Assembly (NCBI GenBank): GCA_051657715.1
Contig: JBOFLF010000015.1
Coordinates: 13,962-77,961 of the forward strand
Direction: 5' to 3'
Source: Angustibacter sp.
GTDB lineage: Bacteria > Actinomycetota > Actinomycetes > Actinomycetales > Angustibacteraceae
DNA: 64,000 nt
The position numbers and the translations under genes are program-made. Position 1 is the first letter of the stretch; every line of letters begins with the position of its first letter. Below the pieces are notes generated by a model, which did not search any database, had not been told where the DNA came from, and saw only the letters and a program-made list of their open reading frames with translations. Below, piece by piece: positions 10,505-40,921 of this stretch.

Positions 10505-11440
10505 TCATAGATCCAGGCGCAGGAAGCTGAACCCTGGGAACACCGCAAAGAGCACCGTGATGGGCAAGACCAGAAAGACAACCGGGACCATCATCGCGAC
10601 TTCGCGCGTCCCAGCCGCATCCATCAACGCTCGCCGCCCCGCTTCGCGTGCGTCCGCGGCCTGCCCACGGAGGACGTCGGCCAATGGCGTACCTCGTTCG
10701 ATCGCCACCACCACGCCATCGACGAACCTGGCTAGCGGGGTTAAGCCGGTCCGGTCAGACAGGCGTTGCAAGGCTTTCGTCACCGGCGTTCCGGATCGGG
10801 CATCGGCTAGGACCCGCTGCAGCTCCATGGACAGCGGACCGTCGCTCACCATCACCACCCGCTCGAGGGCGGCTATCGGCCCCTCCCCCGCCCCGACAGA
10901 CAACGCCACCATCTCGGCGACCGTCGGGAACTCAGCCATCATTGTGCGCTCGCGAACGACGACCTGCCGACCCAACCACCAGTCCCGAGCCGCCGCACCG
11001 AAGCCTCCACCGACCAGGACCAGCAATGCCAGCGGGACAACCGGTGCGGATCGCCACCACCACAACCACGCCGCCAGAGCGCCACCGACCACCACGCCGC
11101 CGACCGCTGCCACCACCTGCTGGGCACGGAACGCGTCTACGTCGTCCGGCAATCCGGCTCGCACCAACCGCTGGCGCACCGATTCCGCTCCGCCGAGGAG
11201 CCGCTCAGCGCGCCGCCCGAGACCGCGCGCCCACGGCGAGACCAGACGAATCAAAACCGAGGCTGAGCTCGTGACCGGATCGGTGCGCACCAACCGGCTC
11301 GGGGTCGGACCCTGGCGGAGATAGGGCGCGAGCCGTTGATCCAACGTGGGACGTCGGGTCAGTGGCAGCCATGTGATGACCAGCAGGACACCCAGAGCGC
11401 CGACCAGCCCGAGTGCCGCTCCAAGCCACGATGCGGTCAT
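10505..11440 (-). CDS. tadC: type II secretion system F-family inner-membrane protein (TadC-like)
   Basis: About 311 aa from the ATG at 11440 (MTASWLGAALGLVGALGVLLV). Polytopic membrane protein with a cytoplasmic T2SSF-like domain. Adjacent to a tadB-like paralogue. Confidence 0.8.
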   Translation of the reverse strand: MTASWLGAALGLVGALGVLLVITWLPLTRRPTLDQRLAPYLRQGPTPSRLVRTDPVTSSASVLIRLVSPWARGLGRRAERLLGGAESVRQRLVRAGLPDDVDAFRAQQVVAAVGGVVVGGALAAWLWWWRSAPVVPLALLVLVGGGFGAAARDWWLGRQVVVRERTMMAEFPTVAEMVALSVGAGEGPIAALERVVMVSDGPLSMELQRVLADARSGTPVTKALQRLSDRTGLTPLARFVDGVVVAIERGTPLADVLRGQAADAREAGRRALMDAAGTREVAMMVPVVFLVLPITVLFAVFPGFSFLRLDL

Positions 11441-11447
11441 GACGCCC

Positions 11448-12338
11448 TCATGAGGTACCAAGGTGATTGGTCGTGAGCACTCGCCGTTCTTCCGGGAGCG
11501 CAGCAATCCGAAGCATCGCCGCATAGGCCACGACGCTGAGCACCCCACCACTCAGCAAGACCAGCGCCCCGGCGGTCGTGCGGTATGCGGCAACCGATTC
11601 CGGGCGGGTGGCCAACAACCCGAGCACGATCCACGGCGCCGCGACCGCCAGCCGTGCACCAGTGACCGTCCACCCCTGCCTGGTGCGCAGTTCCGCCCTG
11701 GTGCGGATGTCCTGACGCAGGAAGGCAGACAACATCCTCAAGAGCCGGCCCACGTCGGTCCCCCCCACCTCACGGGCTAGGCGCAAGGCCTCGATGACGC
11801 GATCGGCCACCGGATCGGCCAGTCGCTCCTTGAGTTGGTCCAACGCTGGAGAGAAACGACCAGAGCCGCGGTAATCCCGAGCGAACTCGGCGAACGCCGG
11901 CCGCAGATCCTCAGGGCCTCGAATCGCGAGCTGTCCGACGGCTTCGGGCAGCTCAAGGCCGGCGCGGACAGCACTGGCCAGGTTGTCTATCGCATCTGGC
12001 CAGACGTCTCGAACAGCGGATCGGCGCCGGCGGGCTCGGGACCGAACCAGCAGCAGCGGTCCAGTCGATGCCATGAGTCCGAAGCAGACCGCGATGGGCA
12101 GCGCCCGGGCCAGACCGTACGCGGCTAACCCGATCACAAGTGCAACGACCACACTGGCTGACGCCAACGCACCCGGGCCGACATCGGGCAACCCGGCATG
12201 TCGCAAGTCGTCGGCCATCTGGTCTCGCACCGACGGCCGTCGGCCAGGCCGAGTCCGCGACGGCTCGGGGATCCAGCACGCCCACCACGTGCAGAACAAA
12301 CCCGTCCCGAGCACCAGGCCCAGCGCAAGACTCGTCAC
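11448..12338 (-). CDS. tadB: type II secretion system F-family inner-membrane protein (TadB-like)
   Basis: 296 aa. Its GTG start overlaps the cpaF stop (GTGA at 12335-12338). Membrane topology is like TadB. Confidence 0.8.
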   Translation of the reverse strand: MTSLALGLVLGTGLFCTWWACWIPEPSRTRPGRRPSVRDQMADDLRHAGLPDVGPGALASASVVVALVIGLAAYGLARALPIAVCFGLMASTGPLLLVRSRARRRRSAVRDVWPDAIDNLASAVRAGLELPEAVGQLAIRGPEDLRPAFAEFARDYRGSGRFSPALDQLKERLADPVADRVIEALRLAREVGGTDVGRLLRMLSAFLRQDIRTRAELRTRQGWTVTGARLAVAAPWIVLGLLATRPESVAAYRTTAGALVLLSGGVLSVVAYAAMLRIAALPEERRVLTTNHLGTS

Positions 12339-13696
12339 GCGAGTTCCCCGGTAGCGGCTGCCCAGCCCGACGGATGTGGTCTGTCTGACGGATGTGGCCT
12401 GTCTGACGAGTCACCGGCCAACAAGGCGACCGGATCGATGCCGATCCGCTCGAACCGTTCCGGGTGTGGCGCGAATCCCTCCGCCCGCACCAGCGTGCCC
12501 TCCCGAGCGACGAAGACATCCGCGGTCTCCAGCACGGTGCCCTCGACCCGCCCGGACACGGCGACGATCTCGCGCACCCGACGAGCCCCTGCGACGTCCT
12601 GGGCGAGGTACACCACCAGATCGATGCTGGCAGCGACGGTCGGCACGACAAAATGGGAGCCGACGTTCTCACCGGCTAGCAACGGCAACGTACACATTTT
12701 CACCAGCGCCTCTCGGGCGCTGTTGGCATGGACGGTGCACATGCCGGGAAGGCCGCTGTTCAACGCCAGCAACATGTCGAGGCTCTCCTCTTGACGCACC
12801 TCGCCGACCACGATCCGGGTCGGGCGCATCCGTAGCGCCTCCTTCACCAGCCGTCGAAGGGAGATCTCGCCCGTCCCCTCGAGATTCGGCTGCCGGCACT
12901 GCAGAGCGACGACGTCCCGAGCACGGATACGGAGCTCGAACACCTCCTCACAGGTGATGATCCGCTCACGAGGACCGATCGAACCAGCGAGGCAGTTCAG
13001 CATGGTGGTCTTGCCGGCCTGAGTACCGCCGGCGACCAGCACGTTGAGCCCGGCACGGACAGCGGCGTCCAGGAAGGCGGCGGCATGGCGGGTCAGCGTT
13101 CCGAGACGTACCAGGTCATCCAGATGTCGGGCACGGACCACGAACTTGCGGACGTTGACGGCCCAGTGCTCCCGGGTCACATCCGGGATGACGACATGCA
13201 GCCGGGATCCGTCAGGCAACGTAGCGTCCACGAACGGAGACGACACGTCGACCCGACGCCCCGAGGACCGCAACATGCGCTCGACGAGTTCCCGGACCTG
13301 CGTCGCCGTCAGGATCGTCGTGGTCAGCTCGGGCTCTCCGGAGCGAGCCACGAACACCTTGCCGGGCTCATTGATCCACACCTCCTCGACTGTCGGATCG
13401 TCCAGGAAGGGCTGGAGCGGGCCGAAGCCGGCGACCGAGTCCCAGACCCGTTGCACCGCAACGGCAGCGTCACCCAGCGCAGGGACGCCATCGGATAGCG
13501 ATCTCTCGTCGTAGTCCGCGACGACCTGCTGGACCAGCGACCGAGCGGTCGCCGGCTCGCGCAGCGGATCGAGACCCGAACCGCGGATCAGCTCCCGGAC
13601 CTCGTACTCCACCTGTGCCACGGCATCTGGTACCGATTCGACCACGCTACCCGTCGTTCCGGTTGATCCCGCACCACTGGCCACTCCGGTCTCTGC
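12335..13696 (-). CDS. cpaF: CpaF/TadA-family pilus assembly (secretion) ATPase
   Basis: Walker A GGTQAGKTT, Asp/His boxes (..RIITCEEVFEL.., ..RIVVGEVRQEE.., GLPGMCTVHANS). Start set at the GTG at 13696 (VAETGV...). The ORF is open to 13864, but those extra codons look non-coding. Confidence 0.9.
   Translation of the reverse strand, partial: AETGVASGAGSTGTTGSVVESVPDAVAQVEYEVRELIRGSGLDPLREPATARSLVQQVVADYDERSLSDGVPALGDAAVAVQRVWDSVAGFGPLQPFLDDPTVEEVWINEPGKVFVARSGEPELTTTILTATQVRELVERMLRSSGRRVDVSSPFVDATLPDGSRLHVVIPDVTREHWAVNVRKFVVRARHLDDLVRLGTLTRHAAAFLDAAVRAGLNVLVAGGTQAGKTTMLNCLAGSIGPRERIITCEEVFELRIRARDVVALQCRQPNLEGTGEISLRRLVKEALRMRPTRIVVGEVRQEESLDMLLALNSGLPGMCTVHANSAREALVKMCTLPLLAGENVGSHFVVPTVAASIDLVVYLAQDVAGARRVREIVAVSGRVEGTVLETADVFVAREGTLVRAEGFAPHPERFERIGIDPVALLAGDSSDRPHPSDRPHPSGWAAATGELA
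12372..12407. repeat. 18-bp x2 in-frame tandem duplication in the cpaF 3' end
   Basis: GGATGTGGTCTGTCTGAC is followed by GGATGTGGCCTGTCTGAC. It encodes ..SDRPHP SDRPHP.. in the C-terminal tail. Confidence 0.9.
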
Positions 13697-32695: not shown

Positions 32696-33253
32696 GTGCC
32701 CGCGCGTCGAAACCAGCCGGTGTGGCAGGCTTCCCGGGTGGACGACAGCCACCACAGCCGTCGCCTGTTCGCCGAAGCGGCGACCAAGAGCGGACTCTGC
32801 TGGATTCGCCCGGACGGCACTGACCGGTGGTGGCCGGTGTGGCACGTCTGGGACGACGACGCGGTCCTGGTGGTGTCCGGCAACGGCGAGCAGGAGCTGC
32901 CACCGTTGACCGGCACGGTATGGATCCTGTTGCGCAGCAAGAGCAACGGCGCCCGGCTGGTGACCGCGCCCGCTCAGGTTGAACCAGTCGACGCGAGCAC
33001 CGCCGAAGGCCAGCAGATCGCGCGGACGCTCGCCGCCGGACGGCTCAACGCCGACGGTCTCCCAGCCGCGGTCGCCCAGCGCTGGGCGGACGACACCAAC
33101 GTCCGGCTCACCCGCCTGCACCCGCTCAGCACCGTCCATGACCAGGTCGATCACGCTGCTGGCAGCGGTGCCGCGCCACCGGCGCCAACCCCCGCAGCCC
33201 CAGTGGTCCGCAGGCCATGGCATCTTCGCGGACGCCGTCCCCGCCGCACGTGA
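32696..33253 (+). CDS. conserved hypothetical protein
   Basis: Codon bias is coding-like (GLCWIRPDGTDRWWPVWHVWDDDAVLVVSG...). No motif recognised. Start uncertain (32696 or the GTG at 32738). Confidence 0.4.
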   Translation: MPARRNQPVWQASRVDDSHHSRRLFAEAATKSGLCWIRPDGTDRWWPVWHVWDDDAVLVVSGNGEQELPPLTGTVWILLRSKSNGARLVTAPAQVEPVDASTAEGQQIARTLAAGRLNADGLPAAVAQRWADDTNVRLTRLHPLSTVHDQVDHAAGSGAAPPAPTPAAPVVRRPWHLRGRRPRRT

Positions 33254-33301
33254 CGACCGCACCCGCCGAGCACGGCCCACCCTTGGGGGTACATTGGGGT
33301 C

Positions 33302-33523
33302 ATGCCCAAGGTCAGCGTCTACCTCCCCGACGATCTCTACGCCGCCGTTCGGGACCGGGGTATCCCGCTGTCCGCGTTGACCCAGAAGGCTGTGCAGGCA
33401 ACGTTGCGAGCCGCGGACAACGAGGCGTGGATCGCTCGGATGCGGGCTCGGACCCGGCCTCGGGTGGCGGCGTTCGACACCACCGAGCTGATGGATGAAG
33501 TCCGCGACGAGTTCGACTCGTGA
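33302..33523 (+). CDS. ribbon-helix-helix-type antitoxin
   Basis: 73 aa. MPKVSVYLPDDLYAAVRDRGIPLSALTQKAV is an RHH/CopG-like N-terminus. Its stop overlaps the start of the PIN gene (ATGA-type overlap at 33520-33523). Confidence 0.7.
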   Translation: MPKVSVYLPDDLYAAVRDRGIPLSALTQKAVQATLRAADNEAWIARMRARTRPRVAAFDTTELMDEVRDEFDS

Positions 33524-33918
33524 TCGTTCTTGACGCGTCAGCCGTCGTCGACGTCGTGTTGGACCAACCGCACGGCAGCTGGGTGCTCGATCAGCTCGCG
33601 GCGGATACCGATGTCGTCGCCCCTGCTCACCAGACAGCTGAAGTCCTGTCCGCGATCGCTCGGGTGGTTCGCACCGACAGGATGACCGCACGGGCCGGGG
33701 CCGCGGCGCTCGCTGACGCTGGCGCGCTCGCGCAGCACCTCGTCCAGCCCTCCCGCGCCCACGTTCGTCGGGCATTCGAATTACGCGGGCGGATCCGGGT
33801 CGTGGACGGCCTCTACGTGGCACTCGCCGAGGAGCTGGCATGTCCGTTGATCACCACCGACCGACGTCTTGAGCGCAGTTCCCCCCCGTGCGCCGTCAGG
33901 TCTCCGGTCGATGCCTGA
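33520..33918 (+). CDS. vapC: PIN-domain toxin (VapC-like)
   Basis: 132 aa. MIVLDASAVVDVV... and the C-terminal ..LITTDRRL motif typical of VapC. Confidence 0.8.
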   Translation: MIVLDASAVVDVVLDQPHGSWVLDQLAADTDVVAPAHQTAEVLSAIARVVRTDRMTARAGAAALADAGALAQHLVQPSRAHVRRAFELRGRIRVVDGLYVALAEELACPLITTDRRLERSSPPCAVRSPVDA

Positions 33919-34009
33919 CGCTCTCTCGACGAGAGACCGTTCACGCTCCGGCCATCGCCGTACAGGTCGGCCAGCAGGGCCATCGCCGCCACCGCACTAA
34001 CCTGGGCAG

Positions 34010-35440
34010 GTGAGCGGCACGTCGACCAAGGTGTTCATCGCCAGGCTGTCCGGCCTGGCGGTGTTCGACCCGTTGGGCGATCAGGTGGGCCGGGTCCGCG
34101 ATGTGGTGGTGGTGTTCCGCGCCGGCCGCCTCGCCCCGCTGGTGGTGGGACTGGTCGTGGAGGTTCCTGGTCGACGCCGGGTGTTCCTGCCGATGACCCG
34201 GGTGACCAGCCTCGACGCGGGGCAGGTGATCAGCACGGGGGTGGTGAACCTGCGCCGGTTCGAGCAGCGCCCGTCGGAGACGCTGGTGCTCGCTGAGGTC
34301 CTGGATCGCCGGGTGTCGATGCGGGACGGCACCGGCGACGTCGTGGTGGAGGACGTCGCGATGACCCAGCAGCGGGGGCGCGACTGGGTGGTCGGCAAGC
34401 TCTACGTCCGCCGAGCGCAGCCGACGGAAGGCCGGGGGCGGGTGCACCGGCTGCGACCCCGCTTGGGCACCCGGATCCGCGGCCGTGGCGAAGCGCTGCT
34501 GGTGGACCACGACGCGGTGACCGGCCTGTCGGTGGACACCGGCCGGCAGGGCGCCGCCCGGTTGCTGGCCACGTTCACGTCGTTGAAGGCCGCCGACATC
34601 GCCGACATCCTGCACGACCTGCCCCCGAAACGCCGGGTGGAGGTCGCCACCGGGCTGGACGACGAGAAGCTCGCCGACGTCCTGGAAGAGCTGCCGGAGG
34701 ACGACCAGGTGCAGATCCTCACCCAGCTGGCCACGGACCGCGCGGCGGACGTCCTGGAGGCGATGCAGCCGGACGACGCCACCGACCTGCTCGCCGAGCT
34801 GCCCGCGGACAAGGCCGAGCAGCTGCTGCAGCTGATGGAGCCCGAGGAGGCCGCGCCCCTGCGCCGGCTGCTCAGCTACGACGACGACACCGCGGGCGGG
34901 CTGATGACCTCCAACCCGGTGATCCTGGGTCCCGAGGCCACGGTCGCCCAGGCGCTCGCGGACGTACGCCGGGCCGAGCTGAGCCCGGCGCTGGCGGCCA
35001 GCGTGTTCGTCTGCCGGCCGCCGCTGGAGACACCGACCGGCCGGTACCTGGGCCTGGTGCACATCCAGCGCCTGCTGCGCGAACCGCCGCACGCCGCGGT
35101 GGGCGGCTTCGTCGACACCGACATCGAACCGCTGCCGCCGGACGCCGACGTGGACCAGGTCACCCGGCTGCTGGCCACCTACAACCTGGTCGGCGCGCCG
35201 GTCGTCGACCAGGACGGCCACCTGCTCGGCGCGGTCACCGTGGACGACCTGCTCGACCACCTGTTGCCGGACGACTGGCGGGCCGGCGACGACGACGCCC
35301 TCGGGCTGGTCCCGCCCACCCGCCGAAGCCCGGCTCTGCCCATCCGCGAGAACCCGGCCTCCGCTGCCGAGTCCGGACCAGCTGCGGCCCGCTCGGACGC
35401 AGCCGCTACCAGGACTCGAGGGGGTCGTCGTGGCACGTGA
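34010..35440 (+). CDS. PRC-barrel / MgtE N-terminal domain / CBS-pair protein (no transporter domain)
   Basis: 476 aa. The MgtE_N-like acidic helical region (ADILHDLPPKRRVEVATGLDDEKLADVLEELPEDDQVQIL) is followed by a CBS pair (..LMTSNPVILGPEATVAQAL.., ..VVDQDGHLLGAVTVDDLLD). I recall Rv1232c-type proteins sharing this layout. Confidence 0.8.
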   Translation: MSGTSTKVFIARLSGLAVFDPLGDQVGRVRDVVVVFRAGRLAPLVVGLVVEVPGRRRVFLPMTRVTSLDAGQVISTGVVNLRRFEQRPSETLVLAEVLDRRVSMRDGTGDVVVEDVAMTQQRGRDWVVGKLYVRRAQPTEGRGRVHRLRPRLGTRIRGRGEALLVDHDAVTGLSVDTGRQGAARLLATFTSLKAADIADILHDLPPKRRVEVATGLDDEKLADVLEELPEDDQVQILTQLATDRAADVLEAMQPDDATDLLAELPADKAEQLLQLMEPEEAAPLRRLLSYDDDTAGGLMTSNPVILGPEATVAQALADVRRAELSPALAASVFVCRPPLETPTGRYLGLVHIQRLLREPPHAAVGGFVDTDIEPLPPDADVDQVTRLLATYNLVGAPVVDQDGHLLGAVTVDDLLDHLLPDDWRAGDDDALGLVPPTRRSPALPIRENPASAAESGPAAARSDAAATRTRGGRRGT

Positions 35441-35942
35441 CCCGCGCCGGGCGCCACGGCTGGACCAGCCGCGGGAGGTGCGGCGGACCCTGATCACCAC
35501 TCCGCGGGTCGACCCGGAGGCGTTCGGTCGGTGGTCCGAGCGGTTCGCCCGGTTCCTCGGCACCGCCCGGTTCCTGGTCTACATGACCGGCTTCATCGGT
35601 GTCTGGCTGGCCTGGAACACCCTGGCGCCGGCGGACGCCCAGTTCGACCCGTACACCTTCACCTTCCTCACCATGCTGCTGTCCCTGCAGGCCTCGTACG
35701 CCGCGCCGCTGATCCTGCTGGCCCAGAACCGCCAGGCAGACCGGGACCGGGTGACCAGCGAGCAGGACCGAGCCCAGAACGAGCGGGCGCTCGCCGACAC
35801 CGAGTACCTCACCCGGGAGGTCGCCGCCCTGCGCCTGGCGTTGGCGGACGTCGCCACCCGAGACTTCGTCCGCTCCGAGCTGCGCGCCATGCTGGACGAG
35901 CTGGACGCCCGGACCGAGCAGGCCGCTGACTCGCCACCGTGA
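35430..35942 (+). CDS. DUF1003 membrane protein
   Basis: 170 aa. FGRWSERFARFLGT..F....TGFI..W...N...........DPYPF-like block (here DPYTFTFLTMLLSLQASYAAPLILLAQNRQADRDR). Overlaps the preceding gene by 11 nt. Confidence 0.8.
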   Translation: MARDPRRAPRLDQPREVRRTLITTPRVDPEAFGRWSERFARFLGTARFLVYMTGFIGVWLAWNTLAPADAQFDPYTFTFLTMLLSLQASYAAPLILLAQNRQADRDRVTSEQDRAQNERALADTEYLTREVAALRLALADVATRDFVRSELRAMLDELDARTEQAADSPP

Positions 35943-35976
35943 CCGACCGGGCCTAGAAGCTCGGCCGCATCACAGC

Positions 35977-36105
35977 TAGGACTTGCGCAGCAGGACGACG
36001 TCGCCGCGACGGACCACCACCCGGTAGCCGTGGTTCATCAGGTCCGCGACCTGGGCCACGGCTACCTCCGGCTTGGGGCCGTCGCAGGAGAACCGGACCA
36101 GCACG
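35977..36105 (-). CDS. possible unannotated 42-codon small ORF
   Basis: GTG..TAG ORF VLVRFSCDGPKPEVAVAQVADLMNHGYRVVVRRGDVVLLRKS. By my count 40 of 42 third positions are G/C. No obvious SD and no homology recognised. Confidence 0.3.
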
Positions 36106-36223
36106 GCGGGTACGTCTGGGCCGAAGCTGGCCCTGGCGGTCGTTTCCTCGTGCTGCTGCCGGCCGCCCAGGCCATTGACTGACAGGCCATCGACTGACCT
36201 GGACGCATCGACGTCGAAGCCAT

Positions 36224-38263
36224 TTGGCGGATCTTCCCGCGACTCAGGGCGCCGATAAACGGTGCATGTCGGGATCTCACCAGACCATCGCTAGCCAGCA
36301 CGTGCCCCGGCACGCGGTCACCCTCGATGCCCGACCGATCCCCGGCGGTGATCCCAGTCGGCGACGTCGATTGGGTGAGGTGTTGATCGACGAGCAGTTG
36401 CTCACCGACGAGCAGCTAGTGCACGCGCTCGCCGTCCAACGCTCAGCGCAGGGCAGCCGCAAGCGCCTCGGCCAGGTGGTCGCCGAGCTGGGCTATGCGT
36501 CCGAGAGCGAGATCGCCGAGGCTCTGGCTGCGCACCTGCAGCTGGAGTCGGTGGACCTGTCCTGGGTGATCCCGGCGGCGGACGTGGTGCGGCTGCTACC
36601 CCGCGCGGTGGCCGACCGGACCGGGGTGCTCCCGCTGGACCGGCACCCCGACGGCGGGCTGATCGTCGCCGCGTCCGACCCGACGAACGTGCTCGCGCTG
36701 GACGACGTGCGGATGTACACCAAGGCCAGCGAGCTCTACATCGTTGTCGCGCCGGAATCCCAGATCCGCGACCACCTGACCCGGGCATGGGCGTTGAACG
36801 CCGACGACTCCGAGGTCTCGCAGATCGCCGCGGACGTACCTGCCGAGGACGACGACCTCAGCGCCCAGGCGGATGCGGCCCTGTCCGCCACCACCACGGA
36901 CGACGCGCCGGTCGTGAAGCTGGTCAGCCAGGTGCTCATGGACGCCGCCCGCCTCGGCGCGTCCGACATCCACCTGGAGACCCAGCGGGACGGGCTGCGG
37001 ATCCGGTACCGGGTGGACGGGATGCTCCGGGACGTGATGACCGCGCCCAAGCGGATCAGCCCCTCCGTGGTGAGCCGGGTGAAGATCATGTCCGGCCTGG
37101 ACATCGCCGAGCGCCGGGTCCCGCAGGACGGCCGCAGCCGGATCATGGTGGACGGCACGGCGGTCGATGCCCGGGTCAGCACGCTGCCGGCGTTGCACGG
37201 GGAGAAGGTCGTCGTCCGGTTGCTAACCCGGTCCGCGCAGGTGCCGTCGCTGGACTCGCTCGGTTTCGAGCCGGCACAGCTGGAGCTGTTCCGCTCCGCG
37301 CTCGCGGTGCCGCAAGGGCTGGTGCTGATCACCGGGCCGACCGGCTCGGGTAAGACCAACACCCTGTACGCCGCGATCAGCGAGACGATGACGCCGGAGA
37401 AGAACATCGTCACCCTGGAGGATCCGGTCGAGGTGCAGCTGCCCGGCATCACCCAGGTCCAGGTGCACGTGAAGTCCGGGTTGACCTTCGACGCCGGGCT
37501 GCGCTCGATCCTGCGGCAGGACCCGGACATCGTGCTGCTCGGCGAGGTCCGGGACAGCGAGACCGCGGAGCTGGCCCTCAAGGCGTCGCTGACCGGCCAC
37601 CTGGTGCTCACCACGCTGCACACCAACTCCGCGGTGGCGGCGTTGACCCGCCTGGTGGACATGGGGGTCGAGCCGTTCCTGGTCGCCTCGTCGCTGACTG
37701 CGGCGATCGCCCAGCGGCTGGTCCGCAAACCCTGCGACGCCTGCGCCGTCGGGTACATCCCGGACGAGGACACCCTGGCGTTGCTGGGCCTGCGGATCGA
37801 GGACATCCTCGACGCGACCCCGCTCAGGGGCACCGGGTGCCCGGACTGCGGTGGCACCGGCTACCGCGGTCGCACCGCCGTCTACGAGATGCTCACCGTG
37901 GACACCGCGATGCGACAGGTGCTGATGGCCGGGGCCAGCGAGTCCGCGGTCGGTGCCCAGGCCCGCGCCGCCGGCATGCTCACTCTGCGCGGTGCCGCGC
38001 TGGAGAAGGCGAAGCGCGGCGAGACGACCTTCGAGGAAGCGGTCCGGGTCACCCACACCGACCACGCCTCCGGCCGGCACTGCCCGTCCTGTGAGCGCGG
38101 GATCCAGCACGACATGGTCGCGTGCCCGTGGTGCGGGGTGAGCGTGGACCACGGCTCCTGCTCGACCTGCTCCCGCCAGCTGGACCCGGACTGGCGGCTG
38201 TGCCCGTGGTGTCGGACCCCGGCCAGCTCGAGCAGCGCTCCCCTCACGCACGCCGTGCCCTGA
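36224..38263 (+). CDS. GspE/PilB-family secretion ATPase with MshEN-like N-domain and extra C-terminal double zinc ribbon
   Basis: Walker A GPTGSGKTN, Asp box NIVTLEDPVE, Walker B DIVLLGEVRD, His box LVLTTLHTNS, tetracysteine CDAC...CPDCGGTGY. N-terminal tandem RLGxxL...Q motifs. C-terminal CPSC..CPWC and CSTC..CPWC. Start may be the ATG at 36266. Confidence 0.9.
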   Translation: MADLPATQGADKRCMSGSHQTIASQHVPRHAVTLDARPIPGGDPSRRRRLGEVLIDEQLLTDEQLVHALAVQRSAQGSRKRLGQVVAELGYASESEIAEALAAHLQLESVDLSWVIPAADVVRLLPRAVADRTGVLPLDRHPDGGLIVAASDPTNVLALDDVRMYTKASELYIVVAPESQIRDHLTRAWALNADDSEVSQIAADVPAEDDDLSAQADAALSATTTDDAPVVKLVSQVLMDAARLGASDIHLETQRDGLRIRYRVDGMLRDVMTAPKRISPSVVSRVKIMSGLDIAERRVPQDGRSRIMVDGTAVDARVSTLPALHGEKVVVRLLTRSAQVPSLDSLGFEPAQLELFRSALAVPQGLVLITGPTGSGKTNTLYAAISETMTPEKNIVTLEDPVEVQLPGITQVQVHVKSGLTFDAGLRSILRQDPDIVLLGEVRDSETAELALKASLTGHLVLTTLHTNSAVAALTRLVDMGVEPFLVASSLTAAIAQRLVRKPCDACAVGYIPDEDTLALLGLRIEDILDATPLRGTGCPDCGGTGYRGRTAVYEMLTVDTAMRQVLMAGASESAVGAQARAAGMLTLRGAALEKAKRGETTFEEAVRVTHTDHASGRHCPSCERGIQHDMVACPWCGVSVDHGSCSTCSRQLDPDWRLCPWCRTPASSSSAPLTHAVP

Positions 38264-38297
38264 GGCCCGGCCTGACTGTGGGATCTAGCATCGACGT

Positions 38298-39431
38298 ATG
38301 CCGACCCCGACCGCAGACCTGATTCGTGCGGCCCTCGCCCGCGTCGACGATCCGGAGATCCGCCGTCCGATCACCGAGCTCGGCATGGTCAAGGACGTCG
38401 CGGTGGGCGCTGACGGCACCGTCCGGGTCGAGGTGCTGCTGACCATCGCGGGGTGCCCGATGAAGGACACCCTCACCCGAGACATCACCCGCGAGGTCGC
38501 CGCCCTCGACGGCGTCACCGACGTCGAGGTGGAGCTCGGGGTGATGAGCGCCGAACAACGCCAACGGTTGCGGGAGCTGCTGCGGGGTGACCAGGCCGAG
38601 CGCGAGGTGCCCTTCGCCCAGCCCGGATCGCTCACCCGAGTTTATGCGGTGGCCTCCGGCAAGGGCGGGGTCGGCAAGTCGTCGATCACGGTGAACCTGG
38701 CCGCGGCGATGGCCGCCGAGGGCCTGCGGGTGGGCGTCGTCGACGCCGACGTGTACGGGTTCTCGGTGCCCCGGATGCTCGGCGTCCAGCAGCGGCCGAC
38801 CCAGGTGGACGAGATGATCCTGCCCCCGGTGGCGCACGAGGTGAAGGTCATCTCGATCGGCATGTTCGTGCCGGGCAACCAACCGGTGGTCTGGCGAGGG
38901 CCGATGCTGCACCGGGCACTGCAGCAGTTCCTCGCCGACGTGTTCTGGGGCGACCTCGACATCCTCCTGCTCGACCTTCCGCCGGGAACGGGCGACATCG
39001 CGATCTCCACGGCGCAGCTGCTGCCGACCGCCGAGATCCTGGTGGTGACCACCCCGCAGCAGGCGGCGGCCGAGGTCGCCGAGCGTGCTGGGTCGATCGC
39101 GTTGCAGACCCGGCAGCAGATCGTCGGGGTGGTGGAGAACATGTCCTGGCTGGAGCAGCCGGACGGCTCCCGGCTGGAGCTGTTCGGCGCTGGCGGGGGG
39201 AGCGCCGTCGCCGAGGCGTTGACCAGGGCCGTCGGCGTCGATGTTCCACTACTTGGTCAGATACCGATCGACGTCGCGCTGCGGGCCAGTGGCGACATCG
39301 GGGATCCGGTGGTGCTGTCGCACCCGCAAGCACCGTCCGCGGTCGCCCTGAGCGCCGTGGCCCGAACCTTGAGCCGCCGAGCACGGGGTCTGGCCGGACG
39401 ATCGCTCAGCCTGACCCCGGTCGCCCACTGA
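38298..39431 (+). CDS. mrp: Mrp/ApbC-family Fe-S cluster carrier ATPase
   Basis: N-terminal DUF59-like domain (LARVDDPEIRRPITELGMVKDV) plus ParA-type deviant Walker A (ASGKGGVGKSS) and a CxxC-less Mrp core. 377 aa. Confidence 0.93.
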   Translation: MPTPTADLIRAALARVDDPEIRRPITELGMVKDVAVGADGTVRVEVLLTIAGCPMKDTLTRDITREVAALDGVTDVEVELGVMSAEQRQRLRELLRGDQAEREVPFAQPGSLTRVYAVASGKGGVGKSSITVNLAAAMAAEGLRVGVVDADVYGFSVPRMLGVQQRPTQVDEMILPPVAHEVKVISIGMFVPGNQPVVWRGPMLHRALQQFLADVFWGDLDILLLDLPPGTGDIAISTAQLLPTAEILVVTTPQQAAAEVAERAGSIALQTRQQIVGVVENMSWLEQPDGSRLELFGAGGGSAVAEALTRAVGVDVPLLGQIPIDVALRASGDIGDPVVLSHPQAPSAVALSAVARTLSRRARGLAGRSLSLTPVAH

Positions 39432-39571
39432 TCGCCCGCCGAGGACTGCAAGCCGCTTGAGCGACGCTGGGCTGAGTGGCGGATCCCCGCCACGTTCTTT
39501 CTCCAGGGCTGTCTCGGCGGCTGGGTCGTGCTGCACTGGCGTATCTGCAGACGACCAGGAAAGGAACCATC

Positions 39572-40237
39572 ATGGTGATGGTGAAGAAGTTACTCCCGGC
39601 ACTCATCGCGCTGGGAACGGGTGTGGGTCTCATCATCGGCCCTTCGGCAGCGGCCGCTACGCAGGCGGCACCATCCCCAGCGACGGCGCACCACCGTGGG
39701 ATATCGACAGCTGGCCCCGTACAGGTATCCAGTCACGGTGGGGTTGACGACGACGGCGTGCAGCTGGTGAAGGCTGTCTTGAAGAGCCAGGATCCGCGCA
39801 CGGCAGTGGCACGCTTGAATTCAGCGGCCCGGGTGACATTCCAGGCGGCACTGGATCGAGGGCTTCGCATCGAAAGCGGCCACGCTCTCGCGGGCGTGAA
39901 GCGGGCCGCCAGCCAACGGGCCGCTGGTTGCTGGAGCGATTACGAAACCTCCGGCATTACTTTCGCGGGCCTCGATATAGGTCGGATATGGATGCAACTC
40001 AATTGGTGCGGAAATGGCTCGGCGATAACCAGGTACAGCGCAACCCCGTACGGCTGCGTCGGTAGGAACGGGTTCAGCTGTACCGCGAATGCCACCCAAT
40101 TCCGCAACCTCGGTTGGGAGGTTCGAGCCTTGGGCACATACAGGTTCACCATCTCATGGGCATCAAGCACCAGATGTGCCCAGATCCGTGGCGGAGCTTC
40201 AGGCTTGTACTCCACGAGGATCAGCTGCGTTTTGTGA
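39572..40237 (+). CDS. secreted Cys-rich hypothetical protein with atypical codon usage
   Basis: AGGAAAGGA SD then ATG. Signal peptide MVMVKKLLPALIALGTGVGLIIGPSAAAA. Six Cys in the C-terminal half. Uses TTA, ATA x4, AGG x4 and AGA codons that I did not notice elsewhere in the window. Confidence 0.65.
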   Translation: MVMVKKLLPALIALGTGVGLIIGPSAAAATQAAPSPATAHHRGISTAGPVQVSSHGGVDDDGVQLVKAVLKSQDPRTAVARLNSAARVTFQAALDRGLRIESGHALAGVKRAASQRAAGCWSDYETSGITFAGLDIGRIWMQLNWCGNGSAITRYSATPYGCVGRNGFSCTANATQFRNLGWEVRALGTYRFTISWASSTRCAQIRGGASGLYSTRISCVL

Positions 40238-40444
40238 CAGCGTTCCCGAAGTGGCTGGCAGTCCTCGCTGGTCGCTGGTGAGCTGGGCCGCGGGGACCAT
40301 GCTGACAAGACCGCAGCTGCACCCCTCAAGGCAGCCAGGTGACGATCAGGTCGGCCAAGCGGCACCGACCGCCCGCCCGAGCGCTTCTGGTCCATCGGCT
40401 GGTGGTGCCGGTGCCACCCCGTCACACACTGGCCGTGGTGGTCG

Positions 40445-40921
40445 TCAGGTGGCGTCGGCGTCGAAGGCGTGCCGTACCCCGCCCGGTGCCTGACCTGGAC
40501 GCCGGTCAGCCTCGCCGTCCTGCTCTCGATCGGCGACCTCGTCCGTCACCGCAGTCGCGACGGTGTGGTCTGTCGCTCGTGAAGCGCGGCCGTTGCGGCC
40601 ACCAGCCGCGCCGTCTCGGCCGTCCTGCAGGCCCAGGGGGTCGTCGCGGATGCCGAGCGGGTCGTCGTCACCATCGAGAAGCGCCTCGCGGACGATCCGG
40701 CGCGGGTCGTAGCGGCGAGGGTCCAGCGCTTGCCAGTCGACGTCGTCGAAGTCCTCCCCCATCTCGGCGCGCACCTGCTCACGAGCCCGCGTGGCGAACA
40801 CCCGCAGCTCCCGTACCAGGCGAGCCAGCTGAGCGGCGTACTGCGGCAACCGCTCAGGCCCGAGTACGACGAGCGCCACGAGGATGAGGATCACGAACTC
40901 CCAGCCGTTGATGCTCGCCAT
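40445..40921 (-). CDS. tatB: Sec-independent protein translocase subunit TatB
   Basis: N-terminus ..GWEFVILILVALVVLGPERLP (Tat A/B signature) and C-terminal ..FDADAT like Mtb TatB. Position next to rseA-sigE. Confidence 0.85.
   Translation of the reverse strand: MASINGWEFVILILVALVVLGPERLPQYAAQLARLVRELRVFATRAREQVRAEMGEDFDDVDWQALDPRRYDPRRIVREALLDGDDDPLGIRDDPLGLQDGRDGAAGGRNGRASRATDHTVATAVTDEVADREQDGEADRRPGQAPGGVRHAFDADAT

Follow-up and report, generated by a model that had tools for sequence, protein, structure and literature searches.

The gene pilB-DZR, located at 36224..38263 (+) in the 64,000-nucleotide stretch of Angustibacter sp. DNA analysed here (the window), appears to encode a paralogous type IVa pilus extension ATPase of the PilB family. 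This reading, to which a probability of about 80% is assigned, is drawn from sequence evidence: domain content, conservation, phylogeny, synteny, and co-occurrence with the platform protein PilC. The gene stands apart from the pilus genes of its genome, and the protein extends the PilB architecture with a C-terminal double zinc ribbon (DZR). The literature search found no experiment on any member of the PilB-DZR family.

Domain architecture of PilB-DZR

The longest ORF runs from TTG 36224 and gives 679 aa, while the database gene call begins at ATG 36266 and gives 665 aa. ATG 36266 is the likely start, with GTG 36302 as another possibility; all three codons precede the first conserved residue, and the alignment with orthologs begins only at about residue 44. 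The GC3-based gene caller yields many false ORFs at 70% GC; it served for candidate location only, followed by a Pfam/NCBIfam check.

A first-pass annotation had described a PilB/GspE-type ATPase with all secretion-ATPase boxes, and this description holds. The N2 + CTD core (residues 225-608, 36896..38047, +) matches Pfam T2SSE (PF00437) at 427.2 bits against a cut-off of 24.9, spanning model positions 3-370 of 370. It contains Walker A (GPTGSGKT, 37334-37357), the Asp box (NIVTLEDPVE, 37403-37432), Walker B (DIVLLGEVRD, 37526-37555), the His box (LVLTTLHTNS, 37601-37630), and the tetracysteine Zn site of the CTD (CDAC at 37733, CPDC at 37838). All of these are invariant across a 39-sequence alignment. 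The Pfam/HMM scan suggested by the same annotation matched MshEN and DZR as well as T2SSE.

In the PDB sequence search, PilF (6f8l) and PilB (5zfr, 5tsg, 3jc8) rank best, with GspE behind them. Foldseek comparison of the AF2 model with the PDB gives PilF 5oiu and PilB 5tsh as the best matches (E ~1e-42, target TM 0.85). PilB-DZR scores 588.7 with NCBIfam TIGR02538, the PilB equivalog, and falls short of the cut-off of 675.65. The canonical PilB of the same genome also falls just short, at 665.1, so this cut-off appears too strict for actinomycete PilBs generally. The GspE model TIGR02533 gives 561.7, below both its own cut-off of 630.25 and the PilB-model score, and the TadA/CpaF-type model TIGR03819 gives 48 bits against a cut-off of 373.

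Thermus thermophilus PilF (6f8l, 5oiu) and Geobacter PilB (5tsg/5tsh, 5zfr, 6olj) are the best matches in both sequence and fold. They share with PilB-DZR the N2 + CTD core with its tetracysteine Zn site and the GSPII/MshEN-type N-terminal domains; they differ in having no sequence beyond the CTD, and core identity is ~48-50%. PilF has three GSPII domains, PilB-DZR one.

The N-terminal MshEN-type domain of PilB-DZR probably binds c-di-GMP, and the motor is probably c-di-GMP-gated. Its MshEN_N-type motif pair (36368..36535, +) matches NCBIfam NF053729, a curated c-di-GMP motif domain, over residues 49-103 at 45.9 bits (cut-off 38). The GSPII/MshEN C-terminal subdomain follows at residues 106-187 (36539..36784, +; Pfam PF05157, 56 bits). 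Motif I occupies residues 49-72 (36368-36439), the spacer residues 73-80, and motif II residues 81-104 (36464-36535), in agreement with the two 24-residue repeats and 8-aa gap of the first-pass annotation. The MshEN consensus given there is identical to the published one (PMC5013675), and the Q that it saw in place of the central G of the first repeat is Q58.

Both RLG triplets, L54, L65, L69, and Q72 are invariant in 36/36 orthologs; the residues shown to be critical in MshEN are the RLG glycines and the leucines (PMC5013675). Each motif departs once from the relaxed published pattern: motif I at Q58 (position 10, where G/A/S are allowed) and motif II at H104 (position 24, where Q/N/K and some others are allowed). 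The turn position of motif I is G in 25/36 orthologs and Q in this protein. The two motifs are 8 residues apart both in this protein and in the aligned orthologs, against 5 in published MshEN. The motif pair is predicted to form a four-helix bundle and has AF2 pLDDT >90, and the genome has 16 GGDEF genes.

Vibrio cholerae MshE (PMC5013675) has the same succession of a tandem 24-residue RLG motif forming a four-helix bundle, then a GSPII subdomain and T2SSE, and its critical glycines G11 and G40 correspond to G51 and G83 of PilB-DZR, both kept. PilB-DZR differs from it in the longer spacer, in the Q at the motif I turn glycine, in the H at the final Q of motif II, and in the added DZR. In PilF, GSPII-B and GSPII-C bind c-di-GMP (PMC11731258), and GSPII-C, as aligned here, has an inter-motif spacer of more than 5 residues, like PilB-DZR.

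The canonical PilB of the same genome (contig C64:323263-324927) is intact. It has the same overall PilB architecture and also matches NF053729; it differs in being only 45% identical to PilB-DZR, in falling in a separate clade, in lacking a DZR, and in having motifs that start QLA and SLG rather than RLG. These motif starts had raised the idea of a c-di-GMP-blind canonical PilB, which was dropped because PilF GSPII-B binds c-di-GMP tightly without arginines (PMC11731258); the NF053729 score of the canonical protein is also above the cut-off.

Beyond the core, residues 620-663 (38081..38212, +) match Pfam DZR (PF12773) at 31.9 bits, with a cut-off of 27.3. The pattern is CPSC-x10-CPWC-x8-CSTC-x10-CPWC, with the cysteine pairs at 38081 (CPSC), 38123 (CPWC), 38159 (CSTC), and 38201 (CPWC). 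The added C-terminal double zinc ribbon reported at first pass is therefore present, but the spacing of its first ribbon is x10 rather than x11. Conservation of the cysteine clusters in homologues, on which that annotation had made its proposal depend, is complete: 8/8 Cys are invariant in 31/31 DZR bearers. The domain was lost once within the family, and some lineages carry DZR-REC (receiver domain) fusions.

The DZR of PilB-DZR is the sole one in the genome. It most likely coordinates two additional Zn ions and would act as a regulatory or partner-docking module. AF2 confidence over it is only 55-72, and no PDB relative covers the tail, the alignments ending at about residue 600. A query with the tail (residues 596-665) against a 5.8-billion-protein collection returned only the same PilB family, a result that is uninformative on the origin of the tail or on fusions in other phyla. 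No account of a zinc-ribbon PilB from actinobacteria emerged from the literature search.

Genomic position and co-occurrence with the pilus machinery

Upstream of pilB-DZR lie the genes for a PRC/MgtE_N/CBS protein (34010..35440, +) and a DUF1003 membrane protein (35430..35942, +), and downstream lies mrp, encoding an Mrp/ApbC Fe-S cluster carrier ATPase (38298..39431, +), whose start is 35 bp past the pilB-DZR stop; these flanks are outside the machine. The first-pass annotation had placed the ORF in this slot with no platform, pilin, or other pilus gene beside it, and the neighbour coordinates agree: inspection of the neighbours found no pilus gene flanking pilB-DZR in this genome. In genomes without pilB-DZR, DUF1003 and mrp are intact and directly adjacent, so the gene is an optional insert. 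The slot is retained in 33/34 orthologous loci checked, class-wide. An Rfam scan of 33000-40500 for riboswitch or leader RNA gave no match at E up to 1, and a consensus promoter and terminator scan of 35800-38500 gave no match.

The genome has one type IVa pilus machine, with pilT-pilC-two pilins-adhesin-like pilin on contig C100 and pilD-pilM on C42. The two-domain PilC is present in a single copy, adjoining a PilT and two pilins; the cluster contains two major-pilin-like genes and a 476-aa pilin with Ig/cadherin-like domains. No pilB stands next to it. A cognate cluster elsewhere without its own ATPase, which the first-pass annotation had named as something that would speak against its proposal, is what C100 presents. 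Given the intact canonical PilB and the lack of an adjacent pilus gene, the PilB-DZR copy could be redundant or specialised.

The order-wide survey covered 400 other genomes, each at least 90% complete (401 with the window's own). A PilB-type gene is found in 163/400 and PilC in 161/400 (164 and 162 of 401), with nearly identical per-family tallies; these co-occurrence counts come from related genomes and are not independent evidence. PilC is present in 86 of the ~89 ortholog-bearing genomes, and the three exceptions are fragmented assemblies. In G145, G312, G240, G264, and G272, assembled in 1-3 contigs, there is no full-length T2SSE gene other than the ortholog in the DUF1003/mrp slot, and their pilT-pilC-pilin-pilin clusters contain no pilB. 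In G448 the ortholog lies inside the pil operon, in the order pilB-pilT-pilC-pilB-DZR-pilin, and the DUF1003/mrp slot is empty. Canonical PilB in relatives (e.g. L066) heads pilB-pilT-pilC-pilA. The genomic association of PilB with PilC, PilT, and pilins is seen through these relatives, with no adjacency in this genome.

In the phylogeny, the PilB-DZR family branches separately from canonical PilB (support 100/100, identity ~45%). The family is vertically inherited and anciently conserved.

Alternative readings

The first-pass annotation called the ATPase an orphan that might serve the distant Tad platform or have a function unrelated to secretion. The label does not survive the survey, in which the gene is the sole PilB-type gene of five near-complete relatives with a pil cluster and an operon member in G448. 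A role in a Tad/Flp pilus system or a type II secretion system is barely credible. A Tad locus does lie ~23 kb upstream inside the window, and the GspE model does score 561.7. However, each of the five Tad loci of the genome has its own CpaF/TadA-type ATPase beside its TadB/C genes, the TadA-family score of 48 bits is set against a cut-off of 373, the GspE score is exceeded by both its cut-off and the PilB score, and no secretin was found in this 98% complete genome. As for a function outside secretion, PilB-DZR might be a signalling or housekeeping ATPase partnered with the MgtE_N/CBS protein, DUF1003, and Mrp, with no link to pili. The conserved slot and the 35 bp to mrp would fit such a partnership, and one report describes Myxococcus PilB as also signalling in EPS regulation (PMC5544727). 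It is nonetheless quite improbable: the neighbours remain intact and adjacent where the gene is absent, its presence tracks PilC, it is the sole PilB-type gene in genomes retaining pilT-pilC-pilin clusters, and its G448 counterpart has relocated to the pil operon.

Another reading holds that PilB-DZR is no general extension motor but drives a separate type IV filament task, such as DNA uptake or specific-substrate secretion, using the same PilC with a different pilin set. Two PilB paralogs with one PilC would suit this division of labour, as would the two major-pilin-like genes and the Ig/cadherin-like pilin on C100. We consider it unlikely; genomes whose only PilB paralog is PilB-DZR still have two pilin genes and PilT, which argues for a general motor.

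Proposed mechanism and significance

As a type IVa extension ATPase, PilB-DZR would form a hexamer, by analogy with the solved PilB/PilF motors, and dock on the genome's only PilC platform, where its ATP hydrolysis would drive pilin polymerisation. The N-terminal four-helix bundle most likely takes up one molecule of c-di-GMP in each subunit; pilus extension would thereby be coupled to the 16 GGDEF enzymes of the cell. The DZR would serve as a regulatory or partner-docking module, lengthened by a receiver domain in some lineages. Since the PilC platform is common to PilB-DZR and canonical PilB, PilB-DZR would be an alternative or co-operating motor. Clostridium perfringens PilB1 and PilB2 are two extension-type ATPases in one monoderm genome, and PilB2 binds c-di-GMP; unlike PilB-DZR, they are encoded within pilus gene clusters and lack a zinc-ribbon tail.

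A tentative extension, which we hold to be conceivable but doubtful, treats PilB-DZR and canonical PilB as interchangeable motors competing for one PilC, with PilB-DZR gated by signals so that a motor swap would switch pilus output or type. Under this scheme, c-di-GMP at the N-terminus and the zinc ribbon at the C-terminus would together decide whether PilB-DZR engages. The ribbon, which some lineages lengthen with a phosphorylatable receiver domain, could be a partner docking site or a thiol/zinc redox switch. If true, the scheme would represent a new level of control over the type IV pili of monoderm bacteria.

To our knowledge, actinomycete type IV pili have barely been studied. On the reading of PilB-DZR as an extension motor, many actinomycetes house such a motor at a fixed housekeeping position, apart from the pilus genes; because of this remote placement, their pilT-pilC-pilin clusters seem to lack a part and the motor seems to be an orphan. 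A second outcome of the analysis is the definition of a PilB subfamily that is widespread and has a conserved zinc-ribbon module at its C-terminus; this module is covered by no solved structure and described nowhere in the literature searched, and some lineages add a receiver domain to it. Cofactor regulation of PilB is an active question, and PilB-DZR may offer a natural case, with putative regulatory inputs fused at both ends of the motor.

Domain architecture and the c-di-GMP motif

The longest open reading frame of pilB-DZR occupies 36224-38263 on the forward strand, starts with TTG and encodes 679 aa with no internal stops. The public gene call, an identical protein, starts at ATG 36266 (+; 665 aa), and GTG 36302 (+) is a third possible start. 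Because orthologs align only from about residue 44, the choice of start codon leaves all domains unaffected. The Pfam scan proposed in the first-pass annotation matches all three expected families: MshEN at residues 106-187 (56 bits), the ATPase core T2SSE at residues 225-608 (427 bits) and a double zinc ribbon (DZR) at residues 620-663 (31.9 bits vs a cut-off of 27.3). The curated NCBIfam model of the c-di-GMP motif domain, NF053729, covers residues 49-103 (45.9 bits vs a cut-off of 38). All motifs quoted earlier lie where they were placed, and the quoted consensus is identical to the MshE consensus in print (PMC5013675); the first ribbon, previously read as CPSC-x11-CPWC, is CPSC-x10-CPWC.

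Both RLG triplets, L54, L65, L69 and Q72 are invariant in all 36 non-redundant orthologs; G90 is kept in 35 of them and L101 in 34. The motif I turn glycine is Q in PilB-DZR and G in 25/36 orthologs, and motif II of PilB-DZR ends in H in place of the final Q, a position that varies across the family. The glycines matching MshE G11 and G40 are present; replacing the equivalent glycines in MshE results in poor or no c-di-GMP binding (PMC5013675). The spacer is 8 residues long, whereas the MshE consensus has 5, and PilF GSPII-C, a c-di-GMP binder, aligns with a spacer of similar length to that of PilB-DZR. AF2 predicts four helices over the motif segment (pLDDT >90). PilB-DZR is predicted to bind c-di-GMP, which we regard as likely. 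Canonical PilB, the other paralog of this genome, likewise matches NF053729, and c-di-GMP binding by PilF does not require the leading arginines, so sensing by one paralog only is not claimed.

The pilus machine and its probable motors

The window lies on contig C15 of an assembly (3.24 Mb, 70% GC, 98% complete) whose best homologues indicate relatives in Angustibacter and Kineosporiaceae. This assembly encodes nine T2SSE-type ATPases: PilB-DZR, canonical PilB, two PilT-family proteins (one on contig C4, one on C100) and five of CpaF/TadA type. It has exactly one two-domain PilC (C100:4003-5223), whose neighbours are PilT (C100:5251-6624, reverse strand, 457 aa), a pair of pilin genes whose products carry class III signal peptides (GFxLIE), and a pilin-like protein of 476 aa (C100:1444-2874, reverse strand). 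This last protein, probably a tip adhesin or a large minor pilin of the type IV pilus, has Big_9 and cadherin-like (Ig/cadherin-like) domains after a prepilin N-methylation motif. PilD and PilM are encoded at the start of contig C42. The single PilC cluster with PilT and pilins, the presence of PilD/PilM and the lack of any secretin match in this 98% complete genome indicate a single type IVa pilus machine, of the monoderm kind. The retraction ATPase belongs to its core cluster, the extension ATPase is not alongside, and both PilB-type genes of the genome are unlinked to it.

Canonical pilB (C64:323263-324993, reverse strand; 45% identical to PilB-DZR) lies between qcrA/qcrB and aroE/mltG, apart from pilT-pilC. 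Both G010 and the sister genome G001 have pilB-pilT-pilC contiguous; the separation seen here reflects a recent rearrangement or else a misassembly. The C100 PilT has a Pro/Ala/Ser-rich N-terminal extension of ~100 aa before a normal PilT core (TIGR01420 from residue 107); the C4 protein is plain (367 aa).

The first-pass annotation had described pilB-DZR as an orphan ATPase. This description is rejected, since a pilus machine without an adjacent extension ATPase exists elsewhere in the genome, a finding that the annotation itself had listed as refuting it. A role as a Tad motor might be suggested by the Tad ATPase (~12611-13429) and TadB/C (~10541-11990), both on the reverse strand of the window. 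Every one of the five CpaF/TadA-type ATPases adjoins its own TadB/C pair, the fifth across the contig break C89/C79, so the Tad systems need no further motor and this role is rejected. A type II secretion motor is rejected because no secretin was found in this 98% complete genome.

Assembly of a type IV pilus strictly requires an extension ATPase, so an ortholog that is the sole PilB-type protein is the presumptive motor. This situation holds in five near-complete genomes of 1-3 contigs (four of family f20, one of the 8-Mb genus g75), where a Pfam T2SSE search returns the ortholog between DUF1003 and mrp as the only full-length PilB-type gene and all other matches are PilT- or Tad-type. Their pilus clusters read pilT-pilC-pilin-pilin (L062-L065, L067), with no pilB within 8 kb. 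G010, of the window's own family, has canonical pilB-pilT-pilC-pilin-pilin (L066) and the DZR paralog at DUF1003/mrp (L056). In G448, from a different family of the class, canonical pilB, pilT, pilC, pilB-DZR (61% identical, zinc ribbons present) and a pilin gene follow one another on a single contig, and DUF1003 and mrp are immediate neighbours.

A survey of 400 genomes of the same order, each at least 90% complete, gives sharply bimodal PilB-type matches: orthologs above 700 bits (59-82% identity) and canonical PilBs below 500 bits (~45%). A search of these 400 genomes with the PilC of this genome finds PilC in 161, against 163 that have a PilB-type gene of either kind; adding this genome gives 162 and 164 of 401. 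The per-family tallies are almost the same. By count from the survey tables, ~89 genomes have the ortholog, 86 of them with PilC; the three without a PilC match are assemblies of 180-450 contigs. PilC without any PilB-type match occurs only in G296, a fragmented assembly. Genomes carry both paralogs, the ortholog only (~48), the canonical gene only or neither, and PilC is found in each of the first three states. Mixed states within several families mean that the co-occurrence is not a single event, though relatives are non-independent samples. Overall, we put the probability that pilB-DZR encodes a type IVa pilus extension ATPase paralog at about 0.8.

Two or three ortholog-family copies occur in G071, G308, G410, G446 and G527. 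In G071 and G308 the alignment extends through the DZR for one copy and stops at about residue 600 for the other; in the remaining three genomes it extends through the DZR for all copies.

Insertion site and ancestry

The neighbours are, as annotated earlier, a PRC/MgtE_N/CBS protein, a DUF1003 protein and Mrp. The ortholog is present in 18 of 30 relatives searched (61-82% identity), and every locus in those 18 has the order MgtE_N/CBS, DUF1003, pilB-DZR, mrp. Five genomes without it have DUF1003 and mrp only 36-550 bp apart, so the pair is conserved and pilB-DZR is indeed an optional insertion between its members. The position is old, being retained at 7/8 loci of other families of the class. 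In the maximum-likelihood tree, the orthologs form a clade separate from canonical PilBs (100/100 support), with internal branching that mostly mirrors taxonomy. Retained position, separate clade and taxonomy-like branching fit a gene that was inherited vertically and lost repeatedly better than one that was transferred recently. The 280-320 bp gap between DUF1003 and pilB-DZR (window 35943-36265) has zero Rfam matches and zero consensus promoters.

The zinc-ribbon tail

The C-terminal Cys clusters, whose conservation had been left as a question, are invariant: all eight DZR cysteines are kept in 31/31 tail-bearing orthologs, as are M631, P635, W657, P661 and the two CP(W/Y)C boxes. Proteins of the f20 clade terminate at ...RVTAG without the tail and nest among DZR-bearing lineages in the maximum-likelihood tree, which makes the DZR an ancestral feature of the family as sampled, with a single loss. 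Four orthologs of 763-778 aa from other families of the class (L070, L072, L073 and L075 in G530, G462, G460 and G435) add a response-regulator receiver domain (REC) after the DZR. Pfam scans of two of them score this domain at 75.7 and 53 bits, and the sequences show its conserved residues (DD, D, T/S and K), the phospho-acceptor among them. No PDB entry aligns past about residue 600, the DZR is the only one in the genome, and close relatives of the tail among 5.8 billion proteins are all members of the PilB-DZR family. A literature search found no paper mentioning the tail. At this end of the motor, the C-terminal one, it probably binds Zn and would serve in regulation or docking.

The core of PilB-DZR is ordinary. 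What is unusual is the fixed site remote from the pilus genes, the sharing of one platform with a coexisting canonical PilB, and the conserved, unstudied DZR (or DZR-REC) tail. The genome has 16 GGDEF-domain genes, three of them in tandem (C35:87003-91044); together with five Tad/CpaF-type loci in 3.2 Mb, they amount to a large commitment to surface filaments and c-di-GMP signalling.
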